Below, piece by piece: positions 9,747 to 50,963 of a stretch of DNA of 62,349 nucleotides. A program made the translations under genes and the position numbers. Every line of letters starts with the position of its first letter. Position 1 is the first letter of the stretch. The stretch comes from Holosporales bacterium (GTDB lineage Bacteria > Pseudomonadota > Alphaproteobacteria > JAJTHO01): the NCBI GenBank assembly GCA_046338525.1, contig JBKDWF010000052.1:1-62349 (forward strand). The letters are read 5' to 3'. A model generated the notes under the pieces. It saw only the letters and a program-made list of their open reading frames with translations. It did no database searches and had not been told where the DNA came from.

Positions 9747-10943
9747 GTGGTTATTGAGGATGTTCTTCTGTTGGTTAGTGTCATTGCCAACTTAGTCGCG
9801 GTGTTTGTCTGGCAACGAAGCCGGATACTGCAAAAACGCTTACGCCAGAATGCCGAAGAGGCTCAGCGCCACAGTGCCTCTCAAACGACGCGGCTTGCAT
9901 CTCGTACGGCAGTACTGGAGTTGTTGCCCGATCCCCTTCTGACCCTAGATGGGCAAGTACGGATTATTCGTGCGAACCGAGCAGCACGACGACTGTTCGG
10001 GGAAGATATTTTGAACAAGCCCCTTTTCGCAGCGATACGAGCCGCGCCGTTGCTGGCCTCATTACAACAAGCCTTTCATCAAGGCACCCGGGCGGAAACA
10101 GAATACCTGCATCCCGGGGTGGTGGAGCGTTTCTTTCGGGTCATTCTTGAGGTTGTGCCTTTCCATGCAGAGCAGCAAACGCGCTTTATTTTGGTGTTCA
10201 GTGATGTCACTGCCTTGAAACAAGCAGCGCGCAGTAAGGCCGATTTTATTGCTAATGCCAGCCATGAATTACGGACACCCCTGACAACCTTGGTGGGGTT
10301 TATTGAGACACTACAAGGCGCAGCTAAGGATGATCCTGCGGCGCGGGAGATGTTCTTGGGCATTATGCATGAACAGACCCAGCGCATGGTTCGTTTGGTG
10401 CAGGATATGCTGCATTTGCAACGCATCGAGCGTCACTTGCATGAGGCCCCCACGGAACAACTGCCCCTTGTGCCTGTTATTGAAAAGGTGGTACGGGCGC
10501 TGCACCTCAAGGCCGAACAACGCCAAATGGCCATTGAGGTAGCCATTTTATATCCGGCGGTTGTTTTAGGCGATGAAGAGGAGATGATTCAGGTTGTCCA
10601 AAACCTGTTGGATAATGCCATCAAATATGGGCAGGTTGCCACTAAGGTGGAGGTGTCCTTAAAAACAGAAGAGAACAGCGCCTATCTCACTGTGCGGAAT
10701 ACGGGGGAGGGTATCAATGCCGAAGACATCCCTCGGCTGACGGAACGTTTTTATCGTACCAAGACGGCGCAGGAAAAGAGCGATGGTGGTACGGGGTTAG
10801 GGTTGGCTATTGTTAAAAAAGCCGTTTCCCGGCACGGCGGCAGATTGGAGGTGCACAGTACTCCGGGGCTGTTTACGGAATTTTCGGTGGTGTTGCCTGT
10901 GTTTGCCGGGCAAGAAAAAATAGGGCAAGAAAAAAACTATTGA
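9747..10943 (+). CDS. PAS-domain sensor histidine kinase, PhoR-like
   Basis: 398 aa, GTG start 4 nt after the kdpD stop. One N-terminal TM helix. H-box SHELRTPLTTL, N-box LLDNAIKY, G1/G2 boxes NTGEGI ... GTGLGLAIV are intact. Confidence 0.75.
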   Translation: MVIEDVLLLVSVIANLVAVFVWQRSRILQKRLRQNAEEAQRHSASQTTRLASRTAVLELLPDPLLTLDGQVRIIRANRAARRLFGEDILNKPLFAAIRAAPLLASLQQAFHQGTRAETEYLHPGVVERFFRVILEVVPFHAEQQTRFILVFSDVTALKQAARSKADFIANASHELRTPLTTLVGFIETLQGAAKDDPAAREMFLGIMHEQTQRMVRLVQDMLHLQRIERHLHEAPTEQLPLVPVIEKVVRALHLKAEQRQMAIEVAILYPAVVLGDEEEMIQVVQNLLDNAIKYGQVATKVEVSLKTEENSAYLTVRNTGEGINAEDIPRLTERFYRTKTAQEKSDGGTGLGLAIVKKAVSRHGGRLEVHSTPGLFTEFSVVLPVFAGQEKIGQEKNY

Positions 10944-18327: not shown

Positions 18328-21300
18328 GTGTTGAAGAAATGGGTTTTATCAGCGCAGGAAGAAAAAAAAGGACGCGGCCTAGTGCGGCCGATGTTGGCGG
18401 CGGTGTGCGTGTTTGCCATGGAGATGCAGGCGTTTGCACTGCCCCAGGGCGGGCAAGTAGCGGCGGGGGATGTGACGATTGGGGCGGCGGCGGCGGGGTA
18501 TCAAGAGATTACCCAAACAACCGACAAGGGCATTATCAACTGGCAATCCTTTGATATTGGACAAGGTGAGCATGTGCGGTTTGTGCAGCCCTCAACCACC
18601 AGCAACACCCTCAACCGGGTGACGGGATCAACAAACCCGTCCCAAATTTTAGGGAGGCTCTCGGCCAATGGCCAAATAACCATCATTAACCCGAATGGGG
18701 TTTTCTTTAGCAAGGACAGCGTGGTGGACGTGGCCGGCCTGACGGCATCCACGGCGAACATCAAGGACACGGATTTTCTAAGCAACAAAATGGAGTTCAG
18801 CCAACCGGGCAGCTCCAACGCGGAAATTGTTAACGAGGGCACCATTACTGTGGAGCAAGCCGGCATCGCCACCCTCGTCGCCCCCAGCGTCCGCAACGAC
18901 GGGATCATCACGGCAAAACTTGGTAGAATCAACCTCGGCGGGGCGGAGAAATTCACCGTTGATCTTTACGGCAACGGCCTGATGTCCCTTGTCGTTGATG
19001 ATGCCGCCTTACAGACCGCCGTTCGCAACGGCGGCATCCTGAGCGCCGAAGGCGGCACCATCACCATGTCGGCCAAAACGGCGGGGGAGCTGGTGGCGAG
19101 CCTGACCGAGAATAGCGGCACGGTATCGGTAGCCTCAACAACCGGCAAAGGCGGCACGGTAGAGATGACCGCAACCCATGTCGCCTTGATGCCTGGCTCT
19201 ACCATTGATGCCAGAGGTAAAACAGGGGGCGGCGTGGTGCTGGTAGGCGGTGACAAGCAAGGCAAGGGCACACTGGCCAACGCGAAAAGAACCTTTATGG
19301 CGGAAACCGCTGTTATTAATGCCGACGCGACGGACAACGGCGATGGCGGGAAAGTCATTCTCTGGGCGGATGAGCATACCGATTTTTATGGTGATATTTC
19401 GGCGAAAGCGGGGGTGAATGGCGGCGATGGCGGGTTTATTGAAACATCGGGCAAACAAACTCTTATGGCTTTTGGGAACGCCAATGCGTCGGCCCCCAAA
19501 GGTAAGGCGGGGGAATGGCTCCTCGATCCGTATGATATTACTATCAACTCTGCTGGGCCCACGGCAAACGGCACCGCCCTGCCAAATTTTACCAGCAACA
19601 ACACCGGTTCTGTTGTTAGGGCTAGTGATATTCAGGCACGGTTGAATGCGGGCACCAGCGTGACGATTACCACGGGTACGGGTCCTGGCAATGGCGATAT
19701 AACGTGGGCGGCGGGGGCATCGATTAATAAAACCGCGGGCGGCAATACTGTTCTTACCCTGAATGCATCACGTAATATTGTGCTGAATAGTGCTATCTCT
19801 GCTACGGTTGGGCAACTCGGCATGGCCTTTAACGCTGGGGGCTCGGGCACCATCACCCTGTCCGCCAATTTAACCTCTAACGGCGGGAATATCACCTTTA
19901 ACCGCCCGGTTTTGCTAGGGGCGGCATCAACCATCAACGCCGGGATCGGAACGTTTACCACTACCACCGGCGCAACCATCAACGCCGGGGCGAACAATCT
20001 TACTATTATTACGAATAACATTGCGCTGGGCGGTACTATTTCAGGCACAGGTTTACTGAACTTGCGACCGTTCACGGCAACAAATCCGATATACCTTAAT
20101 AATGCCACGGCGGGGTTCAATCTCACCGCAGCCGAACTTGGGTTTCTTCAGCCAGGGTTCGCTGGTGTAACAATAGGTTGTGCTACCTGCACCGGGGGGA
20201 TGAACGTGGGGCCAATGACATGGAATGCTTTTCCGCTGACGTTGCAAAACACCACAGGCGGCATTGCGTTCCTAGGTGACCAGACTCTTGGCGGTAACAC
20301 GACGATTAATAATGCAGGCGGTGGAACTATATATTTTACCGGGAGAGTCAATGGCAATGTCAGTGGCAATCAAAACCTGACCGTCATTGGGGAAAATATA
20401 TGGATGTCTTCTGGCCATTCTTGGGGCTGGATAACGCCCCTAGGAAATGTAAGCCTGACCGCCACCAATTCCTTAAACATACACTCCGGCATTACGGCCA
20501 GCAGTATTTTTGCCCAAACTACCGGGGCAGCGGCGGATATAGTTCTTATAAATACGTTAAGTGCCAGTAGCGCGGGTGATGCCATCACATTGGTCAGTGG
20601 TCGTCATTTTCTTACCTACGGTTCCCTCATCACCCCCTCCGGCCGCTGGCTCATCTACAGCACCGCGCCGGGGAGTAACACGCTGAACGGGCTGACGGCG
20701 GGGTTTAGTCAATATAGTTGCAGTTACCCCAGCTGTGTGGTGACGGGCGGTGCGACGCAGAACGGGTTTTTGTATTCCAGCGCGGCACCTTCCAATATAC
20801 TGACCATCACCCCCAGCGTTGTGTCGGTGATTTACGGGGATGCCGCGCCGGCGAATCTTACCAACGGCACGGGGTACGGGTACACGGTGAGCGGCTTTTT
20901 AGGCGGCGATGCCGGGGTGGCGACATTCGGTGCCAACACGTTGGTTGCTAACACTAATTATAGTGCTGGCTCTACTGTTGGAGGCACCTATTTCATTAAT
21001 TACAGCAGCGGCAGTTTGGTCTTGAACTGCGGCGGGTGCAGCAACAGCTACACCCTGTCTTACGCGAATAATGCGAGTGGGGTAACGGTGGGGCAGCGCA
21101 CGGTGACGGCCTCCCTGACCGGGACGGTGAGCAAGACGTATGATGGCACAAATACGGCAACGCTGGCAGCGGGGAATTATAGTTTTAGCAATTTGTACGC
21201 CCCGGATGCTGGGTTATTGAGCATCAGCAATACTATTGCGACGTATGACACCAAAAACGTCGGCACGCTCAAGACCGTGACCATGAGCGCCGCCCCCGTT

Positions 21301-23322
21301 TTATCCGGAACCAAAGCCGCCAACTACACCATTGCGGCCACGCCGTTATCGGGAAACATCGGGACAATCACCCCCGCCAGCATTAGCTCCATCACGGGGA
21401 TCACGGCGAGCAATAAGGTCTATGATGCGGCGACGACGGCGACGCTGAACACCGGGGCGGCTGGGTTTACTGGCCGGCTGGGCAGCGATATTCTGACCGT
21501 GGCCAGCAGCACGGGCAACTTCATTGATAAAAACGTCGGCAATGCGAAAACCGTGAACATCACCGGCCTGACCCTCGGCGGGGCGGATGCGGGGAACTAT
21601 ACCCTAAGCAGCAGCACGGCTGCCGCCACGGCCAACATCACCCCCGCCAGTATTGCTCTGACCGGCCTAACCGTCACCAAAACCTACGATGCCAACAATA
21701 CTATCAACGGCGCGCTGTTTGGCAGCATCTCTACCGGAGTGAGCGGGGAAACCCTCACCTTCACCGGCAGCACGACCACCAGCAGTCCCAACGTCGGCAG
21801 TTATTCCACGGCAACGGGCAGCCTAGTCTTAGCCAACGGCACCGGGCTGGCCAGCAACTATAATCTTATCAACGTTAGCGGTACGGCCAATATCACCCCT
21901 AAATTCATCACTCTTACTGGTGCGAAGCAGAATGACGGCAACACGACAATCCTGCCTGTACATTTGTATACCAACGGGGTGATTGCTACCGGGATTGGCT
22001 TGGAGGCGTTGACCTTGACTGGCAGTGGCAGCGTAGGCGACGCCTTCTTATTGAACACGCCGCAATCCCTTGATGTGAATGGTTTATCGTTGCAAAATGG
22101 TAGCAATGGAGGTCTGGCCGCTAACTATGTTTTTGCTGGGTCTGGTCATACCGCAATGGTGACCTCAGGGCCGCCGATTACGCTTAACATTACCCCAAGC
22201 CCTGTTACGGTCATATACGGTGACAGTGCGAGTACGTCGTTAAATAATTATAGCTATACTTATGATTCTAATCTCATTCTTGCGGGCGATACCCTAGTTT
22301 TTAGTGCCAACACCCTGATGGGTAGTTCGACTTATGCGCCCGGTGTGAACGCGGGCACGACGCATGCCATTAATTACGACAGTGGCGACCTGATGATGAC
22401 CTGTAGCAGTTGTGTGGGCAATTATGTGTTGCAATATCAAAGTGCGGCTAACATCCTGACAGTTATTCCGCGCAGTCTTACCCCCACCCTTATCGGTACG
22501 GTCAGCAAGACTTATGATGCTACTAGTACGGCCAGTTTGGCCATCAATAATATTAGTCTTAGCCCCACTTGGAATGGTGAAGACATCCGGGTTTCTTCCA
22601 TCGGCAGTGCCTTCTTTGATACTCCCAGCGTCGGTAATAATAAGCTTATCACATTGACTACTAAACCAACGTTGCAAGGTTTTGGCGGGGCTAATGCCAG
22701 CAATTATGTCCTCGACTCTATCCCAGCCCCAGCCTCCATCGGGACGATTGACCAAAAACCCGTTACTGTTGCCTATGATGCTAGTCGCATTACTCAAACA
22801 AGTATGTACACCAGCACCACTCCCGTCATCACCGATCTTATCACTAGTGATGCTGTGAGCATCGATCTTACGGGTGCTTTTGCTTTGATGGACAGCCTGG
22901 GCACCAATGCACCAGCCGGAACATACGCCAGCGCTGTTGGCTTTGGCGGTAGCGCCAGTCTCACCGGTGCCAGCAGCGGCAATTACTTCCTCATCCAGCT
23001 CAGTGGTACCCTCACTGTTCTCGCTCCGCCACCACCGCCCACACCCCCTATCCCCAATGATACCATCACCATCAACCTCGAACGCCAAGGTATCCCCGGT
23101 ACATCTATGTTTTCACCGCAATGGCCTGTCCTTGAGCAAATTTCTCCGGCCACCCTTGCCGATGCTGCTTTCCGCCCTATTTTTGATAGCTATAAAGCCG
23201 ATCCCTTTAACGCTCTTTTTGTTGCTGACCTTGAACGTATTATTAACCGTAAAATCGCTAAAAATACCCCAAAACAAACAATTATACCCACCGTCTTCCC
23301 GGGTATTTATGGGAAGTTTTGA
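18328..23322 (+). CDS. Large TpsA-type exoprotein (filamentous-haemagglutinin N-terminal TPS domain, beta-helical region, multiple MBG/YDG-type repeats, Pro-rich linker, unknown C-terminal domain)
   Basis: 1664 aa. TPS motifs: INWQSFDIG, LNRVTG, ILGRLSANGQITIINPNGVFF. Repeated modules have the form ITPAS(I/L)...K(V/T)YD(G/A)T..A...GNYTL. PPPPPTPPIP lies near the C-terminus. GTG start; Met22 is an alternative. Confidence 0.85.
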   Translation: MLKKWVLSAQEEKKGRGLVRPMLAAVCVFAMEMQAFALPQGGQVAAGDVTIGAAAAGYQEITQTTDKGIINWQSFDIGQGEHVRFVQPSTTSNTLNRVTGSTNPSQILGRLSANGQITIINPNGVFFSKDSVVDVAGLTASTANIKDTDFLSNKMEFSQPGSSNAEIVNEGTITVEQAGIATLVAPSVRNDGIITAKLGRINLGGAEKFTVDLYGNGLMSLVVDDAALQTAVRNGGILSAEGGTITMSAKTAGELVASLTENSGTVSVASTTGKGGTVEMTATHVALMPGSTIDARGKTGGGVVLVGGDKQGKGTLANAKRTFMAETAVINADATDNGDGGKVILWADEHTDFYGDISAKAGVNGGDGGFIETSGKQTLMAFGNANASAPKGKAGEWLLDPYDITINSAGPTANGTALPNFTSNNTGSVVRASDIQARLNAGTSVTITTGTGPGNGDITWAAGASINKTAGGNTVLTLNASRNIVLNSAISATVGQLGMAFNAGGSGTITLSANLTSNGGNITFNRPVLLGAASTINAGIGTFTTTTGATINAGANNLTIITNNIALGGTISGTGLLNLRPFTATNPIYLNNATAGFNLTAAELGFLQPGFAGVTIGCATCTGGMNVGPMTWNAFPLTLQNTTGGIAFLGDQTLGGNTTINNAGGGTIYFTGRVNGNVSGNQNLTVIGENIWMSSGHSWGWITPLGNVSLTATNSLNIHSGITASSIFAQTTGAAADIVLINTLSASSAGDAITLVSGRHFLTYGSLITPSGRWLIYSTAPGSNTLNGLTAGFSQYSCSYPSCVVTGGATQNGFLYSSAAPSNILTITPSVVSVIYGDAAPANLTNGTGYGYTVSGFLGGDAGVATFGANTLVANTNYSAGSTVGGTYFINYSSGSLVLNCGGCSNSYTLSYANNASGVTVGQRTVTASLTGTVSKTYDGTNTATLAAGNYSFSNLYAPDAGLLSISNTIATYDTKNVGTLKTVTMSAAPVLSGTKAANYTIAATPLSGNIGTITPASISSITGITASNKVYDAATTATLNTGAAGFTGRLGSDILTVASSTGNFIDKNVGNAKTVNITGLTLGGADAGNYTLSSSTAAATANITPASIALTGLTVTKTYDANNTINGALFGSISTGVSGETLTFTGSTTTSSPNVGSYSTATGSLVLANGTGLASNYNLINVSGTANITPKFITLTGAKQNDGNTTILPVHLYTNGVIATGIGLEALTLTGSGSVGDAFLLNTPQSLDVNGLSLQNGSNGGLAANYVFAGSGHTAMVTSGPPITLNITPSPVTVIYGDSASTSLNNYSYTYDSNLILAGDTLVFSANTLMGSSTYAPGVNAGTTHAINYDSGDLMMTCSSCVGNYVLQYQSAANILTVIPRSLTPTLIGTVSKTYDATSTASLAINNISLSPTWNGEDIRVSSIGSAFFDTPSVGNNKLITLTTKPTLQGFGGANASNYVLDSIPAPASIGTIDQKPVTVAYDASRITQTSMYTSTTPVITDLITSDAVSIDLTGAFALMDSLGTNAPAGTYASAVGFGGSASLTGASSGNYFLIQLSGTLTVLAPPPPPTPPIPNDTITINLERQGIPGTSMFSPQWPVLEQISPATLADAAFRPIFDSYKADPFNALFVADLERIINRKIAKNTPKQTIIPTVFPGIYGKF

Positions 23323-41797: not shown

Positions 41798-42249
41798 CTA
41801 ATTTACAGTCTATTGAGTAATATATAATGATTATCTCTTTCCTAAAATGGGTGGGTTTCAGTTTTCACGCCCTCACCCTCCAAAGCTGCCACTTTGGCGG
41901 CCTCTCCTTTCGGCCTGCCCTATGCACACAAGTCCTGAAATTGGCTCTATTCCAGCATTAGCGCAGTGCAACGCCGTTGCTTTGAAGACGATAACGACTG
42001 CCTGTTACCTCCTTCTCCCGCGCAGCGGGGGAAGGTGAGGAAGGGGGTGTTTAAAATAAGAAAAACCAATGGCTTTTTACCCTCTCCCCGTAAGGCCGAT
42101 GGCCTTACGCCTCCCCCGCTGCGCGGGAGAGGGAGCCGCCGTAAGGCGGCGGGTGAGAGCGTTATAAGTTCGAGAATAATAGCAAGAAAAACACACTATA
42201 TTTACTGCGGAGATTAGGTTTTTAAATTACTCAATAGACTGTAAATTAG
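41798..42249 (+). repeat. R3-family MITE-like element, complete (~450 bp) with ~22-bp terminal inverted repeats
   Basis: The left terminus is ctaatttacagtctattgagtaa and the right terminus is ttactcaatagactgtaaattag. The left ~285 bp is collinear with the partial copy at 2189..2452. The only ORFs are short and implausible. Confidence 0.8.
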
Positions 42250-42337: not shown

Positions 42338-42844
42338 TTATTGAAGTGGTTTGCGCCCAGGTGTTCCCGCAGATAAATGTTTAATAATATCAAATATTTT
42401 ATTGCGTAAGGATGGGTCGGGAATTCGCCAATATGCAGTTACTAGTTCCAGTGTTTCTTTGCGGGACAAGGGATGCTCATCATTATATAGAGAATCTTTA
42501 TCTTCTTGATTTTCGTGCAAAACGAGACCGTTATCGAGAGTATCACTAGTGGAGTAGTCTGGCGCTTCGGCCTCGGTGCCATATCCGGCAAAGAAAGCAC
42601 TGATGGAGACTTTTAAAGATTGTGCAATTTCATAGAGTTTACTGGCACTAATACGGTTGGCACCGCGTTCGTACTTTTGAATTTGTTGGAAAGTCAGGCC
42701 TATATCTGAAGCTAAGCGCTCTTGACTTATACCGGACATGCTGCGCAAAAGCCGCAATCTCTGGCCAACGTGATGATCAATAGGGTGCATAATAAAATAT
42801 TTTCCGCGACTTAGATTAAAGCCTGATGCATTAGATTGCATCAA
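42338..42844 (-). CDS. XRE-family transcriptional regulator, PraR/PhrR-like
   Basis: PIDHHVGQRLRLLRSMSGISQERLASDIGLTFQQIQKYERGANRISASKLYEIAQSLKVSISAFF and the C-terminal ...ISDPSLRNKIFDIIKHL pattern match the remembered alphaproteobacterial PraR/PhrR family. Confidence 0.75.
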   Translation of the reverse strand: MMQSNASGFNLSRGKYFIMHPIDHHVGQRLRLLRSMSGISQERLASDIGLTFQQIQKYERGANRISASKLYEIAQSLKVSISAFFAGYGTEAEAPDYSTSDTLDNGLVLHENQEDKDSLYNDEHPLSRKETLELVTAYWRIPDPSLRNKIFDIIKHLSAGTPGRKPLQ

Positions 42845-42906: not shown

Positions 42907-44440
42907 TGTGTCGTCGTTCAGGCAAATGTCCCAGTAAATAGCCAAGGGAATGTCCCGTAGAGTGTCCAATTTTGGGTGAGCCAAGATGGGACTGAAACGC
43001 AAGACACGAGAGGACATCAGGATGTTGCGATTTGAGGACGTGCATGACCGGTATGCGGCTGGGAAGATTAGCTGTGAGGGGGCAGCAGAGCTGCTTGCAA
43101 TCAACCGGCGGACATTTTTGCGGTGGCGGCATCGGTATGAGGAGCACGGGGGGGCGGACTGGCCGGATTTGCGGCTGGGGCAGGCACCGGCAAACAAGGC
43201 GGCCGACCGAGAGGTAGAGCGGATCACAAAGTTGTACCGGGAAAAATACCACGGTTTTAGCGTCAAGCATTTCCATCAGTATTTATGCTGGGAAGAAGGA
43301 TTTGCGCGCAGCTACAGCTGGGTCAAGCGGGCGTTGGTCAAAAGCGGGGTTGTCACCGTCAGCACGCGCGGCGGCAAGCACCGGTTGCGGCGTCCGCGTC
43401 GGCCACAAGCAGGGATGATGATGCATCAGGACGGCAGCACGCATGTGTGGTTTGGCGACAGCCCGTGCGACTTGATAATCACCATGGACGATGCCACCAG
43501 CTTAGTGACCAGCGGCTTTTTCTGCGAACAGGAGGGGACACTTTCAAGCCTGCGCGGCCTAGCCGAGACGATTGCGGCTTACGGCTTATTTTGCAGCCTC
43601 TACACCGACCGGGGAAGCCATTATTGGTACACGCCAGAAGCCGGGGAAAAGGTGGACAAAAGCCGCCTGACAGAAGTCGGGCGGGCGTGTCAACAATTGG
43701 GCATCCGGCACATACCGGCCTACAGTCCGCAGGCACGTGGGCGTTCGGAACGGCTGTTTGGCACGCTGCAACAACGCCTGACGGCAGAGCTTGCTCTCCA
43801 CGGAATTAGCCATATCGAGGATGCCAACCGCTATCTGCGCGAAATCTACCTGCCGCGGCACAACCAGAAGTTTACCGTCCTTGCCGCCGATCCCGAAAGT
43901 GCCTTTATTCCTTATGTTGGGCGGCCATTAGAGCAGATTTTGTGCGTCCAAGAAGACCGCACGGTCGGTGCCGACAATACCGTGCGCTACCAGGGAATGA
44001 TCCTGCAAATCCCAGCAAACAAGGACCGTCCTCATTATGTGCGCTGTGACGTCACGATTTGTCGGCATATCGACGGGACGCTGTCTATCCTCCATGGGCA
44101 TCGTTGTATCGGTCGTTACACCAGCAACGGCGCGCCACTACAGAAAAAAACACTCCCATGTAGCCCCGTTGTTCCCAAGAAAATATCCGCCGCATGAACA
44201 ATAAAAATAGGCTGTGGATGACAGGCAGTATGGGGATAAGTGCGCCACACAGCACCATCCTCACACCAAACCCCGCCGACGCACTTACCCGCCATACATG
44301 CCCGTGCATCCACAGTCTGCCACAACCGCCTCCGCTTAAAAAAAGGATATTGAAAAAGGTGGTGGGGACGGTCTATACCTCCACAACTTTGGGGACATTC
44401 CCCGGCTTATATATTGGGACATTTCCCCTGAGCGTTGACA
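42907..44440 (+). mobile_element. Insertion sequence (~1.53 kb) with a single rve/DDE transposase, imperfect terminal inverted repeats and a 15-bp target-site duplication. ISNCY (IS1202-group) or IS481-like.
   Basis: IRL is tgtgtcgtcgttcaggcaaatgtcccagtaaatagccaagggaatgtccc. The reverse complement of IRR is tgtcaacgctcaggggaaatgtcccaatatataagccggggaatgtcccc. The direct repeat gcgcaaataacaggc lies at 42892..42906 and 44441..44455. Confidence 0.85.
42986..44197 (+). CDS. DDE (rve integrase-core) transposase
   Basis: 403 aa. N-terminal HTH (ISCEGAAELLAINRRTFLRWRHRYEEHG). DDE candidates are HQDGSTH, LYTDRGSHY and SPQARGRSERLFGTLQ. Confidence 0.85.
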   Translation: MGLKRKTREDIRMLRFEDVHDRYAAGKISCEGAAELLAINRRTFLRWRHRYEEHGGADWPDLRLGQAPANKAADREVERITKLYREKYHGFSVKHFHQYLCWEEGFARSYSWVKRALVKSGVVTVSTRGGKHRLRRPRRPQAGMMMHQDGSTHVWFGDSPCDLIITMDDATSLVTSGFFCEQEGTLSSLRGLAETIAAYGLFCSLYTDRGSHYWYTPEAGEKVDKSRLTEVGRACQQLGIRHIPAYSPQARGRSERLFGTLQQRLTAELALHGISHIEDANRYLREIYLPRHNQKFTVLAADPESAFIPYVGRPLEQILCVQEDRTVGADNTVRYQGMILQIPANKDRPHYVRCDVTICRHIDGTLSILHGHRCIGRYTSNGAPLQKKTLPCSPVVPKKISAA

Positions 44441-44535
44441 GCGCAAATAACAGGCAAATAACAGCGCAAACATCAACGCCTTGACATTCCCCTGACGTTA
44501 ACTGTTTCATAACACTCTCTTTCTAGGCAAATCAC

Positions 44536-45510
44536 ATGCGCCTAAAAACATTCACCGCCGTCAATATGCCTGATGCCATGCGGCAGGTGCGTGCCGCCTT
44601 GGGCGATGAAGCTATTATTTTATCCACTGAGCATGATAAAATAAGAAAACAGCTTCTGGTGACAGCAGGGGTGGAAGAAAAGCCCTCTTCCAAAGCAGTA
44701 AAGTCAACATTGAAGCCTAAAATTAAAGTTGAGGCGGGCGTACTGGACAGCCTCACGGACGTGCTGGATCGCCACCATCTTCCCCGCCGGTTGGCTAACA
44801 GACTGCTCCGCCAAGCCGAAGAGGTGCAAGGCAACGTCCTCCACGTTTTAGAAGAAGTTTTAGCCAGCAGCATTGCTTTTACCGAAGATATGCCCACCGC
44901 ACCGTTGGTGCTTATTGGCCAGCCTGGAGCCGGGAAAACGGTGACAGCAGCGCGCCTTGCGGCGCGGGCGCGTCTGGCCGGGCAAGAAGTTATTTTGTTC
45001 AGCACCGACACGGTAAAGGCCGGTGGCATCGAACAACTTGGCAATTTGGCGCGAGCGATGAAGGTACCTTTGCATACTGCCGAAGACCCAAAGGCTCTTA
45101 CCCACGCCATGCGGCAGATTCCCGCCGGAACCCGTGTTTTTATCGATACGGCAGGGCTTGACCCCCGCACCGATGCGGCCCATTTGACCGCCCTGACCAA
45201 AATTCCCAGTGTCGCCTTTGCGTGGGTATTACCGGTTAGCGGCGATGCTGAAGATATGCGTGAGGAGGCCGAGGCGCTGGCAACGGCTGTTCCTTTATCG
45301 GTTTTATTGCCCACCCGCCTGGATTTAGCGCGTCGGTTGGGAGGGGTTATCAATGCCGCGATGAACCTTGGCTTGCCCATTGGCCCCACGGGGATGAGCG
45401 TGAGTATTGCCAAGGGCCTGCGGCCACTCTCGGCACCGCTGCTGGCGGCCTTGATGCTTGCCGATGTTAAGGTGCCGAAGGGGCGTTTTCTAGGGGATGC
45501 AAAATCATGA
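44536..45510 (+). CDS. flhF: FlhF-like SRP-type GTPase
   Basis: 324 aa. The N-terminus MRLKTFTAVNMPDAMRQVRAALGDEAIILS is typical of the FlhF B-domain. The NG domain has G1 GQPGAGKT, G2-region STDTVKAGGIEQL, G3 DTAGLD and G4 TRLD. Confidence 0.8.
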   Translation: MRLKTFTAVNMPDAMRQVRAALGDEAIILSTEHDKIRKQLLVTAGVEEKPSSKAVKSTLKPKIKVEAGVLDSLTDVLDRHHLPRRLANRLLRQAEEVQGNVLHVLEEVLASSIAFTEDMPTAPLVLIGQPGAGKTVTAARLAARARLAGQEVILFSTDTVKAGGIEQLGNLARAMKVPLHTAEDPKALTHAMRQIPAGTRVFIDTAGLDPRTDAAHLTALTKIPSVAFAWVLPVSGDAEDMREEAEALATAVPLSVLLPTRLDLARRLGGVINAAMNLGLPIGPTGMSVSIAKGLRPLSAPLLAALMLADVKVPKGRFLGDAKS

Positions 45511-46250
45511 CACAGCCGCGCAACCGTAAAATTGTGGCCATTGCTTCGGGCAAGGGCGGGGTGGGCAAGACTTGGTGCGCCATCACACTGGCCAAAACAT
45601 TGACCGATATGAATAAGCGCGTCTTACTGATTGATGGGGATTTGGGTCTGGCGAACATTGATATTCAATTGGGGCTTGGAAATTGCTTGGATTACCGTGA
45701 TTTTCTAAGGGATAGCAAAAAAAACCTCGCCGATTGCGTGCAACAGCACGATGGCATAAACCTTATTGCCGGATCGTCCGGTTCTGGTGCATTGGGGACA
45801 CTCTCCTCGGCAAGTCTCGATAGGCTTGGTCAGGGCATTGTTTCTCTAACCCCTTATTATGATATTATTATTCTCGATCTCGGGGCCGGGGTTGATACCG
45901 CCGTGCGGCGGCTCAGCGCGTTGGCAGGTCAGATAGTAGTGGTCACGACCCCAGAACCCACGGCACTAACAGATGCCTATGCCTACATTAAAGTGACTAT
46001 GCCCCCTAAAGTCGCACTTCTTGTGAACATGGCCGATGATGCCGTTGATGGAGAGCGAGCGTATAATACATTATCGAAAGCATGCGATAACTTCTTGAAA
46101 ATAAAACCTGAATTACTGGGAATTATTCATCGGGATAAGGCCGTACCCGCCGCTATCAGGCGGCAAAAAACCATTGTTGCGGCGGCACCCCGATCGGGAA
46201 TTGTTAAGGAGATGCGGGCTGTTGCAGTATTATTAGTAAAAATTTTATAA
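45507..46250 (+). CDS. flhG: MinD/ParA-family ATPase FlhG (YlxH/FleN-like)
   Basis: 247 aa. Deviant Walker A IASGKGGVGKT. Coupled to flhF by a 4-nt overlap. The C-terminus (EMRAVAVLLVKIL) is amphipathic. Confidence 0.8.
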   Translation: MTQPRNRKIVAIASGKGGVGKTWCAITLAKTLTDMNKRVLLIDGDLGLANIDIQLGLGNCLDYRDFLRDSKKNLADCVQQHDGINLIAGSSGSGALGTLSSASLDRLGQGIVSLTPYYDIIILDLGAGVDTAVRRLSALAGQIVVVTTPEPTALTDAYAYIKVTMPPKVALLVNMADDAVDGERAYNTLSKACDNFLKIKPELLGIIHRDKAVPAAIRRQKTIVAAAPRSGIVKEMRAVAVLLVKIL

Positions 46251-46290
46251 AAAATTCTTTACAAGGGTATTTATCTCCTTTATATCTTAA

Positions 46291-46310
46291 TTTGTGATTA
46301 AAGTCACAAA
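46291..46310. promoter_or_regulatory. Perfect CRP/Crp-Fnr-type palindrome upstream of the first virB2 paralogue
   Basis: tTTGTGA-ttaaag-TCACAAa has the TGTGA-N6-TCACA core. It sits 45 nt upstream of the ATG at 46355. An extra half-site, ttgtgac, lies at 46314..46320. Confidence 0.5.
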
Positions 46311-46354
46311 TAGTTGTGACGCAAAACCACAGGAAGAGGAAAAAGGAGAATCCT

Positions 46355-46744
46355 ATGAAACACTTTATTTTTCGAGTAACGCGCTGGCTAGCTTGCTTTG
46401 CCGTTGCTGCTTTATTTATCGGAGGGATGACGGGGGCAGCATCCGCCCAGACGAGTAGTGGTCAACCCCGTGATGTTGGCAAAACTGTTGGAATAGGGAA
46501 AGGCATTAAAGATTCAACTTTTTTTGCAGACTCTAACGAACTCGTTATCGATAGCTACAGATCGGGCAGTGGGGTGGTGCTGGGTGTCGGCGGCCTTGGG
46601 GCGATTGCCCTCGGCGCGCTGGCCATGTTTGGACGGTTCCAATGGCAATGGCTGATGGCTCTCATTGGCGGTCTAGTTACTATCGCCGGTGTGGGCACTG
46701 CGATTCAATACCTCACGGGTGCGACAACGCTGAAGAACACTTGA
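46355..46744 (+). CDS. virB2: VirB2/TrbC-family type IV secretion pilin, paralogue 1
   Basis: ATG with an aaggag RBS. Signal peptide ...GGMTGAASA/QTSSG. The C-terminus GVVLGVGGLGAIALGALAMFGRFQWQWLMALIGGLVTIAGVGTAIQYLTG parallels Agrobacterium VirB2 ...LAVLGIVAIGISWMFGRASLGLVAGVVGGIVIMFGASFLGKTLTG. Confidence 0.8.
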   Translation: MKHFIFRVTRWLACFAVAALFIGGMTGAASAQTSSGQPRDVGKTVGIGKGIKDSTFFADSNELVIDSYRSGSGVVLGVGGLGAIALGALAMFGRFQWQWLMALIGGLVTIAGVGTAIQYLTGATTLKNT

Positions 46745-46760
46745 TTGTTAATTGTTACGC

Positions 46761-46787
46761 AGAGGAAGGGCTCTCCCCCCTTCCTCT
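46761..46787 (+). other. Intercistronic 10-bp-stem hairpin between virB2 paralogues 1 and 2
   Basis: agaggaaggg-ctctccc-cccttcctct. There is no U-tract, so it is more likely a processing, stability or partial-attenuation element than a full terminator. Confidence 0.5.
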
Positions 46788-46822
46788 TCCTTTCCGGAAC
46801 GAGACAAGAAAGGAGTGTCATC

Positions 46823-47137
46823 ATGAAAAAGAAAAATGTATTTTTATCGCTATTAGGAATAACAGTTTTTGTCGGTGCTATTCTGGTCGGCGCAGATACG
46901 GCCTTGGCGGCGAATCGCTCCCCCCTTGCCAAGCTAAGCCCTTTAGCTTTTGATAGTTATTTGAGTTTCAAAGGGCTATGTTACGGCGTGGCCGGAATTT
47001 CTACTCTTGGTGCCGGTGCTGTGGCCATGGGCAGTGGCCGCATGCCGACAAAATGGCTGGTGGCTTTGGTGTTATCATTAACAATGGCCTCGGGCAGTGG
47101 TGAGTTTGTTAATTATATAACGGGGGCGGATTTATGA
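46823..47137 (+). CDS. virB2: VirB2/TrbC-family pilin, paralogue 2
   Basis: ATG with an aaggag RBS. Signal peptide MKKKNVFLSLLGITVFVGAILVGADTALA. The C-terminus GVAGISTLGAGAVAMGSGRMPTKWLVALVLSLTMASGSGEFVNYITG has the same two-helix layout. Confidence 0.7.
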   Translation: MKKKNVFLSLLGITVFVGAILVGADTALAANRSPLAKLSPLAFDSYLSFKGLCYGVAGISTLGAGAVAMGSGRMPTKWLVALVLSLTMASGSGEFVNYITGADL

Positions 47138-47901
47138 AAAAGAACAATCATAGATATATACTGTTGTTTTTAATCTTGTTTTCCGGAGTTTGTTTTTCCG
47201 AGAAAGCCAGTGCCGATCTGTACGGTTCAACCACTGGCGGGGATATGTACGGAGGAGGAGGTGGCAGCGGCAAGGGTCTATACAAGAAAAACAGCGAAGA
47301 CAAAGAAGAAGATGGCAGAAGTGAGGGGCTATACAAGAAAAACAGCAGCGAAGACGAAGGCACCAGGACGATTACTCCTTCTTCAACCTCTCGCAACACC
47401 TCTACAGGCGAAACATCCGCTTTTTCTTCAGAAAACAGCGATGAAATCTTCAAAGAAGCCATTGATGTAGGCAAAGAACTGATTAAGCCAGGCCAAGATA
47501 TTCTCCAAGGCCTCAGCGTTCTCGCCATCATGGGCGTGGGCGGCATGGCCGCATTCGGGAGTTTTCCTAAAGGCTGGGCCATTGGGATTATCGGCGGGTT
47601 GTCGGTGATGCTGCTGTCCGAAGAGTTTGCCAATTGGATTGTGGATATTGCCAAAACTAACAAACCAGAAACTTTTGATGATATTAGTGAGACTGTTGTA
47701 ACAACCACAGAGATTCTTAGCGCCGATGTTAGTAATCTGATGTACATTACCTCCGGCATAGGTGTGATAGGTCTATCCACCATGGGCTTTTTCGGGGCAA
47801 TGCCATGGAAATGGGTGGGTTCCCTCATTGCGGGTCTGATGGTTATTGCTGGATCGTCGGATATTGTCGGCTATATTGTCAGCGGTCTAGCAAACGGGTA
47901 A
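47134..47901 (+). CDS. Secreted protein with a disordered Gly/acidic repeat region followed by two tandem VirB2-like pilin modules
   Basis: Signal peptide MKKNNHRYILLFLILFSGVCFSEKASA. Repeat GLYKKNSEDKEEDGRSE / GLYKKNSSEDEG. Module A is LSVLAIMGVGGMAAFGSFPKGWAIGIIGGLSVMLLSEEFANWIV. Module B is IGVIGLSTMGFFGAMPWKWVGSLIAGLMVIAGSSDIVGYIVSG. ATGA overlap with the previous gene. Confidence 0.7.
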   Translation: MKKNNHRYILLFLILFSGVCFSEKASADLYGSTTGGDMYGGGGGSGKGLYKKNSEDKEEDGRSEGLYKKNSSEDEGTRTITPSSTSRNTSTGETSAFSSENSDEIFKEAIDVGKELIKPGQDILQGLSVLAIMGVGGMAAFGSFPKGWAIGIIGGLSVMLLSEEFANWIVDIAKTNKPETFDDISETVVTTTEILSADVSNLMYITSGIGVIGLSTMGFFGAMPWKWVGSLIAGLMVIAGSSDIVGYIVSGLANG

Positions 47902-47907
47902 TGTGCC

Positions 47908-48198
47908 ATGCCAGAAAAAATCCTTCGCGCTGTTGCTAACCCGGCCACCCTGTTCTGGGCACCGCAATTGCCAGCGGGCATTAACATGGCCGTGCATGCT
48001 TTCTTTATTATCTACGGCTGGGGAATTTTCCGCATGTCCCCCCTTATCTTCATTGCCAGTTTTTTTATCTGCCACATGGTGATTGCCAGCCAAGGTGTGC
48101 GGGAACCGCACCTTAGCACCATGATCCGCGCCTGGCTTTTTGGTCGCCGCCGCACCCGCAACCTAAACCCCGGTAGAACAAAGAAATTTGTCAGTTAA
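47908..48198 (+). CDS. virB3: VirB3/TrbD-family type IV secretion protein
   Basis: 96 aa. [24 protein letters not shown]..(TM)..(TM)..[16 protein letters not shown] parallels Agrobacterium VirB3 LAATRPALFLGVPLTLAGLFMM...ERDYNAASVVLLFLRT. Confidence 0.7.
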
Positions 48199-50963
48199 AC
48201 TGGGGCACCAGTGGATGATTCAAACGCCCGTTCTTGGGCTTGCAATTCAAAGCACTCAATCTGGTCGTTCTCACGAATATCTTGGTAGTTCTCAAAGGCC
48301 ATGCCGCATTCAAAGCCGGATTTGACTTCCCGGACTTCGTCTTTGAGGCGTTTGAGGGTTTTGAGGCTGCCTTCATGAATAACAATATTATCACGCAGCA
48401 AGCGCACCTTGCAGCCGCGCTTGATAATCCCTTCCGTGACCATACACCCGGCGATCTTGCCCACCTTAGTAATATCGAACACCCTGCGAATCTGGGCATA
48501 GCCAAGGAAAATTTCCCGCAACGTCGGTGCCAACATCCCGCCAAGGAGTTTCTTCACGTCATCCAGAACGTCATAAATAATCGAGTAATATCGAATTTCC
48601 ACCCCATCACGCTTGGCCGCATCCCGGGCTTGCGGGTTGGCACGGACATTAAAGCCGATAACCGCCGCACCGGAAGCTTTGGCCAAGGATATATCCGATT
48701 CAGTAATACTCCCCACCCCGGAGTGCAGCACCTGCACCGCGAGTTCATCATTACGAAGTTTTTGCAAGCTACTGCGAATGGCCTCGAGGGAGCCTTGCAC
48801 GTCGGTTTTGACAATAACGGGGAGTTCTTTGCGTTTGGAATCACGGATTTTAGCAAACAGGCTTTCCATCCCGCCACGCGCCGTGGCTAGGTTTTGCTTT
48901 TGACGACGCTCACTTTGACGGAATTCGCTGACTTCTCTTGCTTTTTCATCATTTTCCACCACAACAAAATCGTCCCCGGCATCAGGAACGCCGCCAAGAC
49001 CTAAAACCTCTACCGGGGTCGAAGGGCCCGCTTCTTTCACCCGTTTGCCATGCTCATCCACCAAAGCGCGCACCTTGCCCCATTCACCGCCACTGACAAA
49101 CATATCGCCAACACGCAACGTGCCACGCTGAACCAAGATTGTTGCCACCGGGCCACGGCCAATATCAAGTTTGGCTTCAATCACGCGGCCTTGGGCGCTG
49201 CGATCCGGGTTGGCGCGCAGGTCAAGAATTTCCGCTTGCAGCAAGATAGCCTCTTCAAGCTTTTCAAGGCCAAGTTTCTTTTTTGCTGAAACTTCAATAG
49301 ATTGTACATCACCGCCGAGCTGTTCCACTTGAACCTCATGGCTGAGCAGGTCGGTACGCACGCGGGTTACGTCCGCGCCCGGTTTGTCAACTTTATTAAT
49401 GGCGACAATGAGTGGCACTTTTGCCGCTTTCGCATGGCTAATCGCCTCAATGGTCTGGGGCATGATGCCGTCATCTGCTGCTACTACCAACACCACGATA
49501 TCCGTGACGTTAGCTCCACGGGCACGCATCTCCGTAAAGGCCTCATGACCGGGGGTATCGAGGAAGGTAATCGCCTTGCCGCTGGGCAGGGTGACTTTGT
49601 ACGCACCAATATGTTGAGTAATGCCGCCGGCCTCACCGCCTGCAACATCGGTGGAACGCAACGCATCCAGCAAGGACGTTTTACCGTGATCAACGTGGCC
49701 CATAATGGTGACCACCGGCGCACGGGGCAGACGAGCGATATCGGTGTCTTCTTCCCCGCCAAGGCCAATTTCAACATCCGCAGCAGAAACCCGGCGCGGT
49801 GTGTGGCCAAGCTCTGTTGTCACCAATTCAGCCGTATCGGCATCAATGGTTTGCGTGGCCATCGCCATAACACCCATACGCATGAGGCATTTCACCACAT
49901 CGGCGGTCCGTTCTGCCATCCGGTTGGCAAGCTCTTGCACAGTAATTACTTCAGGAATAACAACGTCACGAACAATTTTTTGGCGATCATCCAAATCATC
50001 CTTGCGGTGCATTTTCTCCCGTTGTCGGCGAACGGCGGCAAGACTACGGGTACGAAGGTCGTCCGCATCCTCTAAATCCAAGGTGAGAACTACTTTGCCG
50101 GAGCGTCTACGGATATCGGTTTTTTTGGTGGCTTCTGCTTTTTTAGTTTCAGTCTTTTTTGTGTCTGCAAGCTTTAATTTACCGCCTTTGCCACGTGCAG
50201 GAGTTGCAGCAGGAACGGGAAGAGAAGCCTCAACTCGGGCATTAGAACGAACTCCGGCTGGTTTTGCCACAAGGGGTGATTCATTGGGACGGCGGACAAC
50301 GCGCTTGAGCGGTTCATCCCCGCGTACCGGGGCACCGATAGAGGTTGTCGTGGTTGTCGTCCGCGCACCAGCCCGAGCCGGGGCAAGGCTCGTCATTCCA
50401 GGGCGAATAGGCGTTGAAAGAACAGGCTTTTGCCGCTGCTGGTTGTTGCTGGCATTAGAACGATTGCCGGCACCAGAACCGGAACCACCCGTCCCAGAAC
50501 GGCGCAGGCCTTCTACCGGGCGCAACTGGTTCAAGGGTTTTGCCCCCGCAATAGGAGGTTTGGAAACACTTGTTGTAGGAGCCACAGGTGCCGGGGCAGG
50601 AGGCGGCGCAACGGGTTTTTTAACAGGCTCAACAAAGGCAGGAGCCTTGGTGATTTTGCGCAAGCCATCGGAAACTGCTGTCGTTGCGGGGGCTTGAGCC
50701 GCCTGCTGTTGCGCCCGCAAAAGAGACAAGCGATGATCCACACCACCAACAGCGAGAGACGACCCGCCAGGGCGACCATCCCCGGTGCTAGGCGTACTCG
50801 GCACAGGCGCACCAATACGCTTACGCTTAACCTCCACGGTCACCGTTCGGCCACTAGGGACTCCGGGGCGCTTGCCCCCAGAGAGATCAATCTTTTTTTT
50901 CAGTTCCAATCGGCCGCCACCTTGGGGCTGATTGGAACCGGGGGTATCGGTGGTATCGTTCAT
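48195..50963 (-). CDS. infB: Translation initiation factor IF-2
   Basis: 922 aa. GTPase motifs [20 protein letters not shown] and NKVDK. Long Pro/Ala/basic N-terminal region. Downstream of nusA. Confidence 0.95.

Follow-up and report, generated by a model that had tools for sequence, protein, structure and literature searches.

Organization of the locus

A block of six genes in contig JBKDWF010000052.1 of the Holosporales bacterium assembly GCA_046338525.1 combines two flagellar regulators with the predicted front end of a type IV secretion system (T4SS). This contig was analysed in its full length of 62,349 nucleotides and is referred to as the window. The block comprises six open reading frames (ORFs) on the + strand (44536-48198), all in the same direction: flhF, flhG, three genes for pilins of the VirB2/TrbC type, and a gene for a divergent VirB3 (Table 1). 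The window is an entire metagenome contig, and the best named relatives of its proteins are labelled "MAG: Holosporales bacterium" (MAG, metagenome-assembled genome). The arrangement is real and unusual, the locus is best read as a split or scattered P-type T4SS, and control of a T4SS by flagellar regulators is not supported.

An earlier note, made from the sequence of the window, had described six co-oriented genes bounded by an insertion sequence (IS) element and a divergent XRE gene upstream and by a convergent infB downstream; both the layout and the boundaries are confirmed. The translational coupling of flhF and flhG proposed there agrees with the 4-nt ATGA overlap of the two genes. The arrangement is indeed atypical, in that virB3 is not followed by virB4 and flagellar regulators are positioned upstream. 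Pfam and tblastn searches agree with the note that the 62 kb contain no other flagellar or T4SS gene. No such gene was identified by Pfam among approximately 31 other large ORFs, which encode housekeeping proteins, an ankyrin protein, and a two-partner-secretion (TPS) exoprotein. Furthermore, 11 flagellar and 7 T4SS queries, including FlhA, FliF, FliG, FliN, MotA, FlgE/G/A/H, and VirB4/6/8/9, matched only the six genes when compared with the window by tblastn. The six-gene order is common to more than ten independent assemblies, and assemblies from JGI, Logan, ENA, and NCBI all show it. Therefore, it is not a chimera or an assembly artefact.

Table 1 Coordinates of the six-gene block, its putative regulatory elements, and its flanks in the window.
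Feature	Position	Strand	Description
flhF	44536-45510	+	324 aa; SRP-type (signal recognition particle-type) GTPase, flagellar FlhF family (predicted)
flhG	45507-46250	+	247 aa; MinD/ParA-type ATPase; 4-nt ATGA overlap with flhF
Candidate sigma-70-type promoter of pilin module	46258-46286	+	TTTACA, 17 nt, TATATC, from sequence
Perfect palindrome TGTGA-N6-TCACA	46293-46308	.	Candidate CRP/FNR-type operator
pilin 1	46355-46744	+	129 aa; VirB2/TrbC-type; starts 104 nt past flhG; AGGAG ribosome-binding site
pilin 2	46823-47137	+	104 aa; VirB2/TrbC-type
pilin 3	47134-47901	+	255 aa; tandem double VirB2/TrbC domain; 4-nt overlap with pilin 2
virB3	47908-48198	+	96 aa; probable divergent VirB3; 6 nt past pilin 3
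infB	48195-50963	convergent	Stop shares 4 nt with virB3 stop
IS element	42921-44427	+	ISNCY-family; transposase ORF 42986-44197, NF033594 5.9e-99
XRE regulator gene	42338-42844	divergent	Upstream of block

Identity of the pilins and VirB3

The assignment of the six products to the FlhF, FlhG, VirB2 (three copies), and VirB3 families is supported, partly through the relatives of the proteins. The profile searches of the small proteins gave a divided answer: pilin 3 passes the cut-off of its family, whereas pilins 1 and 2 and VirB3 fall below theirs and were rescued by their relatives. Pilin 3 matches PF04956 (TrbC/VirB2) with an E-value of 1.1e-12 and 48 bits (cut-off 27.9) in two separate stretches, and it is therefore a tandem double pilin. 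The matches of pilins 1 and 2 to the same profile have E-values of 3e-3 and 5e-3, the latter over the full profile, and 17-18 bits, which is under the cut-off. All 18 of the 18 pilin-family members match PF04956 (best 2.6e-10), and pilin 2 is paralogous to pilins 1 and 3 according to tblastn.

Translations and an alignment of the pilin family share a layout of a signal peptide with an A-x-A leader end and two hydrophobic helices with a GG.G..G.....A.FG+..W.W hinge. In pilin 1, the signal peptide is followed by a pair of hydrophobic helices rich in Gly/Ala, with FGRFQWQW as the hinge. Pilin 3 carries its double domain downstream of a signal peptide and of a low-complexity segment that is variable, and the length of the protein ranges from 194 residues in loci L010 and L019 through 255 in the window and 236 in L030 to 314 in L013 (related loci are given with L numbers). 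Homologous pilins sit before virB3-virB4 in dozens of loci, and in the window before virB3 only.

The 96-residue product of the last gene matches PF05101 with an E-value of 0.059 and 14 bits, under the cut-off of 23.9. It appears to be a divergent VirB3, because its family is placed before virB4, 18 of 30 family members match PF05101 (best 1.2e-5), and its only plasmid match is a gene annotated as "VirB3 family" in RefSeq, located in an operon of TrbC/VirB2, VirB3, VirB4, VirB8, VirB9, VirB10, and an ATPase. Assignment to IcmT/TraK of type IVB systems (NCBIfam, 5e-4) was rejected, as genes of this family are found in P-type operons that also encode VirB8 and VirB9, and their place there is between the genes for VirB2 and VirB4. 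A profile search of the PDB returned no match for VirB3 and only spurious membrane-protein matches for the pilins. The AlphaFold model of VirB3, calculated from a six-sequence alignment, contains helices at residues 23-40 and 45-61, with a mean predicted local distance difference test score of only 54. Taken as a set, the four small genes are predicted to be the first part of an operon for a P-type T4SS, which stops where virB4 should start.

Linkage of virB3 and virB4 in related loci

The separation of virB3 from virB4 is a rare exception to a near-universal linkage. One genome per GTDB species was searched with an alignment of VirB3 relatives, and in 42 of the 43 loci obtained the virB3-like gene is directly followed by an ORF of approximately 810 codons, the product of which passes PF03135 (CagE/TrbE/VirB4) above the cut-off. 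A scan of metagenomes with the N-terminal alignment of VirB4 as the query yielded 71 loci, all of them canonical, with virB3 seen wherever the stretch upstream of virB4 was included; L029 itself was not recovered, no locus belonged to the samples from which the window originates, and the collection scanned is probably without these samples. Among approximately 115 related loci outside the Holosporales group in which both genes are visible, virB3 directly precedes virB4 in every one. The two genes are not adjacent in the window, L010, L019, L030, and L013; in these loci, the neighbour of virB3 is a convergent gene, either infB or a member of the CMD family.

Multiple pilin paralogues before virB3 occur in intact operons as well (L045, L047, L048, and L050), with operons of three or more among them. 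The locus L050, from a Dongiaceae MAG, contains a virB6-like gene, three pilin genes, virB3, and virB4, followed by virB8 and virB9. Because of this order with three pilins, considered alongside the operon of the Microvirga plasmid pMVF16-3, the three pilins of the window probably represent the ancestral front end. In L029, the VirB3 of which is 61% identical to that of the window, pilin, virB3, and virB4 are still joined. Since L029 retains virB4, parsimony places the cut between virB3 and virB4 once, in the putative ancestor of the window and L013 lineages.

Some loci (L062, L068, L069, L114, L115, and L121) contain a second, shorter VirB4-like ORF (approximately 390-410 residues, 20-30% identity), and in several loci a second virB3 copy is present just ahead of the main virB3-virB4 pair. 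Many MAGs of gut Alphaproteobacteria (L031-L067, e.g. L040 1-9232) have virB2-virB3-virB4 divergently adjoining a cluster of genes for a secretin, a GspE-like ATPase, and a GspF-like protein, a set similar to that of a type IVb or thin-pilus system.

Assignment of FlhF and FlhG to the flagellar family

FlhF of the window matches PF00448 (SRP54-type GTPase) with an E-value of 6.6e-20. Its match to TIGR03499 (1.2e-37) reaches 130 bits, under the cut-off of 174, with its best stretch confined to the profile's C-terminal half. The top NCBIfam model of the protein is FlhF, the next-best are also FlhF models, and FtsY and Ffh are far behind. Alignment with relatives shows that the G1 (GQPGAGKT), G3 (DTAG), and G4 (TRLD) motifs and the conserved N-terminus MRLKTFTA are intact. 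FlhG matches CbiA/ParA/MinD models with E-values from 1e-12 to 1e-23 and has the deviant Walker A motif SGKGGVGKTW (KGGVGKT), with only eight residues (MTQPRNRK) before the first strand. An N-terminal DQAxxLR region of FlhG that activates FlhF is known in Vibrio (bioRxiv 10.1101/2022.03.19.484964); this motif is absent from FlhG of the window, and the longer N-termini of the FlhG proteins of L011 and L058 are also without it.

The flhF and flhG genes of the window are predicted to belong to the flagellar FlhF/FlhG family, because their relatives are embedded in flagellar clusters: flgE-fliF-fliG-x-fliN-motA-flbD-flhA-flhF-flhG in L147, the FlhF of which is 39% identical to that of the window, and fliF-fliG-fliN-motA-flhF-flhG in the rumen MAG locus L058. 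In L007, L011, L058, and L147, flhG directly follows flhF, and the pair is detached from flagellar clusters in three Holosporales-like lineages, namely L007, L011, and the window. The FlhF/FlhG systems of Vibrio, Pseudomonas, Bacillus, and Alphaproteobacteria with flhA-flhF-flhG (e.g. L147) share with the window pair adjoining, overlapping genes for an SRP-type GTPase and a MinD-type ATPase, intact nucleotide-binding motifs, and orthologues inside flagellar clusters. By contrast, the window pair has no flagellar neighbour in 62 kb, its FlhG is without the long N-terminal activator region, and its FlhF is a short form under the TIGR03499 cut-off.

Upstream of flhF, homology to relatives without the IS element begins at 44493, 43 nt before the ATG, which indicates that the native upstream region has been replaced. 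The non-homologous stretch includes a TTGACA sequence (44478-44483), and expression of flhFG in the window strain may depend on sequence brought by the rearrangement. The junction between the end of the IS element and flhF (44428-44535) also contains a strain-variable tandem repeat of 11-12 nt in 2.8 copies (44438-44470).

Extent of the flhFG-pilin adjacency

The six-gene order is limited to a shallow clade with at least 85% identity of FlhF. Synteny thus supports the adjacency of flhFG and the pilin module within this clade, and the adjacency is absent in the next relative, the MAG GCA_046336535.1 (L007 and L013), the FlhF and VirB3 of which are 47% and 65% identical to those of the window. 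In L010 and L030 (FlhF 85% identical), all six genes are kept without the IS element, and accA is positioned upstream instead. The view of the arrangement as a one-off accident, which the earlier note had considered, is too weak, given that the order is kept across the clade at a synonymous divergence (dS) of approximately 0.9 and with different upstream neighbours. Footprints of rearrangement are present in the form of the IS element upstream in the window, the different upstream genes in L030, and a repeat inserted after virB3 of L030. A mobile island or horizontal transfer was rejected as the origin of the block, as the dip in the guanine-cytosine content is mild (0.48 vs 0.53) and relatives have the same six genes without the IS element.

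In GCA_046336535.1, flhFG form an isolated pair flanked by msrB and a glycosyltransferase gene (L007), and three pilin genes and virB3 are located directly behind flgF-flgG-flgA-flgH, followed by convergent CMD and AhpC genes (L013). The core of pilin 1 in L013 is nearly identical to that of the window. The spacer between the flagellar operon and the module is 104-178 nt long, with both in the same orientation, in both lineages with a detached module. FlgH is 55-63% identical across Alphaproteobacteria among the matches listed in a protein search with FlgH from L013.

Flagellar neighbours also occur at loci with intact virB3-virB4 in two unrelated MAGs from Alphaproteobacteria. In L051 (3402-7099), a gene for a 406-residue FlgE-like protein directly precedes virB2-virB3-virB4. 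In L058 (1-12731), the flagellar cluster ending in flhF-flhG lies 5 kb ahead of an isolated virB3-virB4 pair, behind which lgt is located. A limited set of flagellar queries detected no flagellar neighbour at approximately 110 other loci of the family.

Transcription signals upstream of the pilin module

The spacer between flhG and pilin 1 contains TTTACA (46258) and TATATC (46281) separated by 17 nt, which can be read as a consensus-like promoter. This region is kept in L010, L019, and L030, and the spacer behind flgH in L013 has TTGACA, 17 nt, and TAAAAC at the equivalent place. Because the promoter-like region is conserved behind two different upstream genes, flhG and flgH, the module appears to carry its own promoter/operator-like region whatever is upstream. 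Nothing similar to a sigma-28 or sigma-54 flagellar promoter was found in the 104-nt spacer.

The palindrome TGTGATTAAAGTCACA starts 6 nt past the putative -10 element. It is the sole exact copy in the 62 kb, in which approximately 0.06 copies are expected according to a rough estimate. Its half-sites are kept in L030 with a different N6, and L013 has TGTGA-N6-GCACT with the same spacing. The window showed no gene for a CRP/FNR protein. No terminator-like site was found between flhG and pilin 1, so that read-through from flhG is possible.

Selection and strain variation

All six genes are under purifying selection. The ratios of non-synonymous to synonymous substitution rates (dN/dS) relative to L030, at dS of 0.8-1.1, are 0.10 for flhF, 0.06 for flhG, 0.21, 0.18, and 0.19 for pilins 1, 2, and 3, and 0.03 for virB3, the lowest of the six.

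The near-identical strain GCA_046313015.1 has flanks that are 99-100% identical to those of the window. Within 46401-46794, the identity of the two strains drops to 61-73% in two regions of pilin 1, namely the N-terminal part of the mature protein and the tail at the C-terminus, and the variable parts of pilin 1 in GCA_046313015.1 correspond to the allele of the more distant L030. This suggests that the mosaic alleles of pilin 1 may have arisen by allelic exchange between strains. An indel of approximately 180 nt separates the two strains in the low-complexity part of pilin 3 (47195-47480). Conserved cores with mosaic exposed parts are as would be expected for an expressed, surface-exposed pilus subunit.

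Two probable functional units in a rearranged genome

We consider it reasonably probable that the block is formed by two separate functional units lying side by side in a rearranged symbiont genome. The first unit, the translationally coupled flhF-flhG, would set the position and number of flagella and would be detached from a fragmented flagellar gene set. The second unit, three VirB2 pilins and VirB3, would be the front end of a P-type (VirB/Trb-like) T4SS that was cut from virB4 and the genes behind it in the ancestor shared by the window lineage and its sister. It would keep its own promoter, with the operator-like palindrome over the likely transcription start, and could also receive read-through transcripts from flhG. 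Its products would be Sec-exported pilins and a small inner-membrane VirB3, which would join a machine that contains VirB4 and is encoded at another place, either chromosomal or on a plasmid. Exposure at the surface would be expected of pilins 1 and 3 and may account for their strain-level variability. This genome presumably also contains the remaining T4SS and flagellar genes. To judge from its sequence, the pilin module probably has promoter activity, and its products would assemble into a pilus. VirB4 is the only known partner of VirB3, and the extreme constraint on VirB3, together with the known dependence between VirB3 and VirB4, argues that a VirB4 partner is likely to exist.

Several observations weigh against this reading. 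Neither virB4 nor virB6 and virB8-virB11 were found in the readable contigs of the window and L013 lineages, which amount to approximately 60-80 kb per genome, and two reviews name the T2SS and T6SS (secretion systems of types II and VI) and flagella as the typical apparatus of Holosporales, without the T4SS (PMC11909080, PMC11724238). The promoter was not called by a consensus scanner, since its -10 element ends in C. L007 and L013 are linked solely by membership in one binned MAG. Furthermore, both lineages have the detached module directly behind a flagellar operon, which is flhFG in the window lineage and flgFGAH in its sister. This is suggestive, as it would be odd under pure chance: the probability per independent placement is well under 1% by a rough estimate that assumes a handful of flagellar operon ends among approximately 1,500-2,000 intergenic sites. 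Most of the surprise would disappear if the module had been linked once, in an ancestor, to a larger flagellar cluster that then broke up in different ways. L051 and L058 give a hint of such an old flagellar-virB linkage, with approximately 110 other loci without it. The recurrent link of the module to flagellar operons is suggestive but unproven.

The recurrent position could also result from selected co-expression, in which the module is kept behind flagellar operons and switched on by read-through together with motility genes, for example at an extracellular or transmission stage, with its own promoter/operator as a second layer of control. The shared orientation and spacer lengths in both detached lineages, the lack of a terminator-like site between flhG and pilin 1, and the flagellar neighbours in L051 and L058 fit this explanation, as does the proposal that Holosporales express flagella conditionally during host transfer (PMC11909080). 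However, only two lineages exhibit the pattern, and both may derive from one ancestral flg...flhFG...module supercluster, which would reduce the pattern to a single chance event. In addition, flagellar neighbours were missing from approximately 110 other family loci as probed with the limited query set, and the promoter-like region is sigma-70-like, unlike sigma-28 and sigma-54 flagellar promoters. We regard co-expression as unlikely. Distinctly doubtful is a scenario in which the pilus front end, uncoupled from its ATPase operon, came under flagellar control and is kept right behind flagellar operons for joint production of pilus and flagellum during a transmission stage; the two might also be built at one pole, where FlhF/FlhG would be their common landmark. 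It is highly improbable that FlhF and FlhG have been directly co-opted as a polar landmark and number control for a T4SS or pilus, in addition to the flagellum or in its place, as the earlier note had suggested. In favour of this view, the six-gene block is kept at dS of approximately 0.9 with flhF and flhG strongly constrained, flhFG have no flagellar gene elsewhere in the 62 kb, FlhG has approximately eight residues before Walker A and no DQAxxLR region that would activate FlhF, and ParA/MinD ATPases position diverse cargos (PMC11407121). However, the claim of the note is not supported by the sister lineage GCA_046336535.1, in which flhFG and the module are at separate loci and flagellar rod and ring genes are present. 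Also against it are the promoter-like region of the module itself and by the relatives of FlhF and FlhG within ordinary flagellar clusters, which have the same motifs and the same N-terminal region of FlhF; a published precedent was not found in the literature searched. It is very unlikely that virB4 and the remaining T4SS genes were lost and that the pilin-like proteins and VirB3 now serve a role independent of a T4SS, for example as envelope or surface proteins. Such an orphan module would agree with the lack of further T4SS genes in the readable contigs of the two lineages, with the reviews cited above, and with virB3 abutting the convergent infB with nothing after it. However, dN/dS of 0.03 for VirB3 and its 65% identity between lineages in which FlhF is 47% identical are hard to explain without VirB4, the visible sequence is only a small part, approximately 60-80 kb, of each genome, and VirB4 homologues are encoded on Holosporales plasmids. 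Moreover, T4SS genes are scattered in other reduced alphaproteobacterial genomes, those of Rickettsiales with the rvh system.

Comparison with other T4SSs

The canonical P-type T4SS of Microvirga sp. VF16 plasmid pMVF16-3 (TrbC/VirB2, VirB3, VirB4 homologue, VirB8, VirB9, VirB10, and ATPase) and the virB clusters on chromosomes of uncultured Alphaproteobacteria from gut and freshwater (L031-L145) share the protein families and the order of pilin(s) followed by virB3 with the window, and multiple pilins occur in the chromosomal clusters as well. Unlike in the canonical operons, the operon of the window ends after virB3 and has flagellar regulators upstream.

The rvh T4SS of Rickettsiales is organized in scattered islands with multiplied components, including families of VirB2 paralogues in Anaplasmataceae. 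Its apparent likeness to the window lies in a chromosomal T4SS that is broken up into islands, in an alphaproteobacterial carrier that is reduced and host-associated, and in the presence of several pilin paralogues with variable exposed parts. The two differ in that the window is Holosporales-like, and thus from another order, and in that its virB3 is split from virB4; rvhB3 presumably stays beside rvhB4, and rvh is not known to be associated with flagellar genes.

Within the Holosporales, VirB4 homologues are present on plasmids CP008937, CP008938, and CP008940 of Candidatus Paracaedimonas (Caedibacter) acanthamoebae. Like the window, this T4SS comes from a member of the Holosporales, and it has a VirB4 homologue 31% identical to VirB4 of L050 with two small ORFs before it. 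These ORFs have no detectable similarity to VirB3 of the window (E-values up to 0.01). By contrast with the window, the system is plasmid-borne, associated with a MOBQ relaxase, probably conjugative, and intact, not split. Holosporales often carry flagellar genes, T2SS, and T6SS according to the reviews (PMC11909080, PMC11724238).

The locus indicates that at least one uncultured Holosporales-like lineage keeps VirB2 pilins and VirB3 under strong constraint, with exposed parts that vary between strains. As an exception to the linkage of virB3 and virB4, it is a natural test of whether VirB3 and VirB4 need to be co-translated. A true flagellar link would suggest that two envelope machines of an intracellular symbiont are regulated jointly or placed together at a pole; without such a link, the locus would be a case of IS-driven rearrangement scattering operons in reduced genomes.

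Other features of the window

The IS element upstream of flhF has 36-nt terminal inverted repeats at 42921-42956 and 44392-44427. The helix-turn-helix domain of the XRE regulator has a weak match to the Wolbachia Wmk family model (1.7e-14), far under the cut-off. An ankyrin-repeat protein of a kind typical of intracellular symbionts is encoded at 160-1008. The ORF at 18328-23322 encodes a 1664-residue exoprotein with a TPS domain and YDG repeats, and an adjoining gene for a TpsB transporter is not obvious. A dispersed repeat of approximately 170 bp is located at 41901-42070 and, inverted, at 2201-2349, and it is associated with an internal 24-nt near-perfect hairpin pair (42009-42032 and 42112-42135). 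Another copy of the repeat (10381-10551) is present in L030, where it sits between virB3 and infB.

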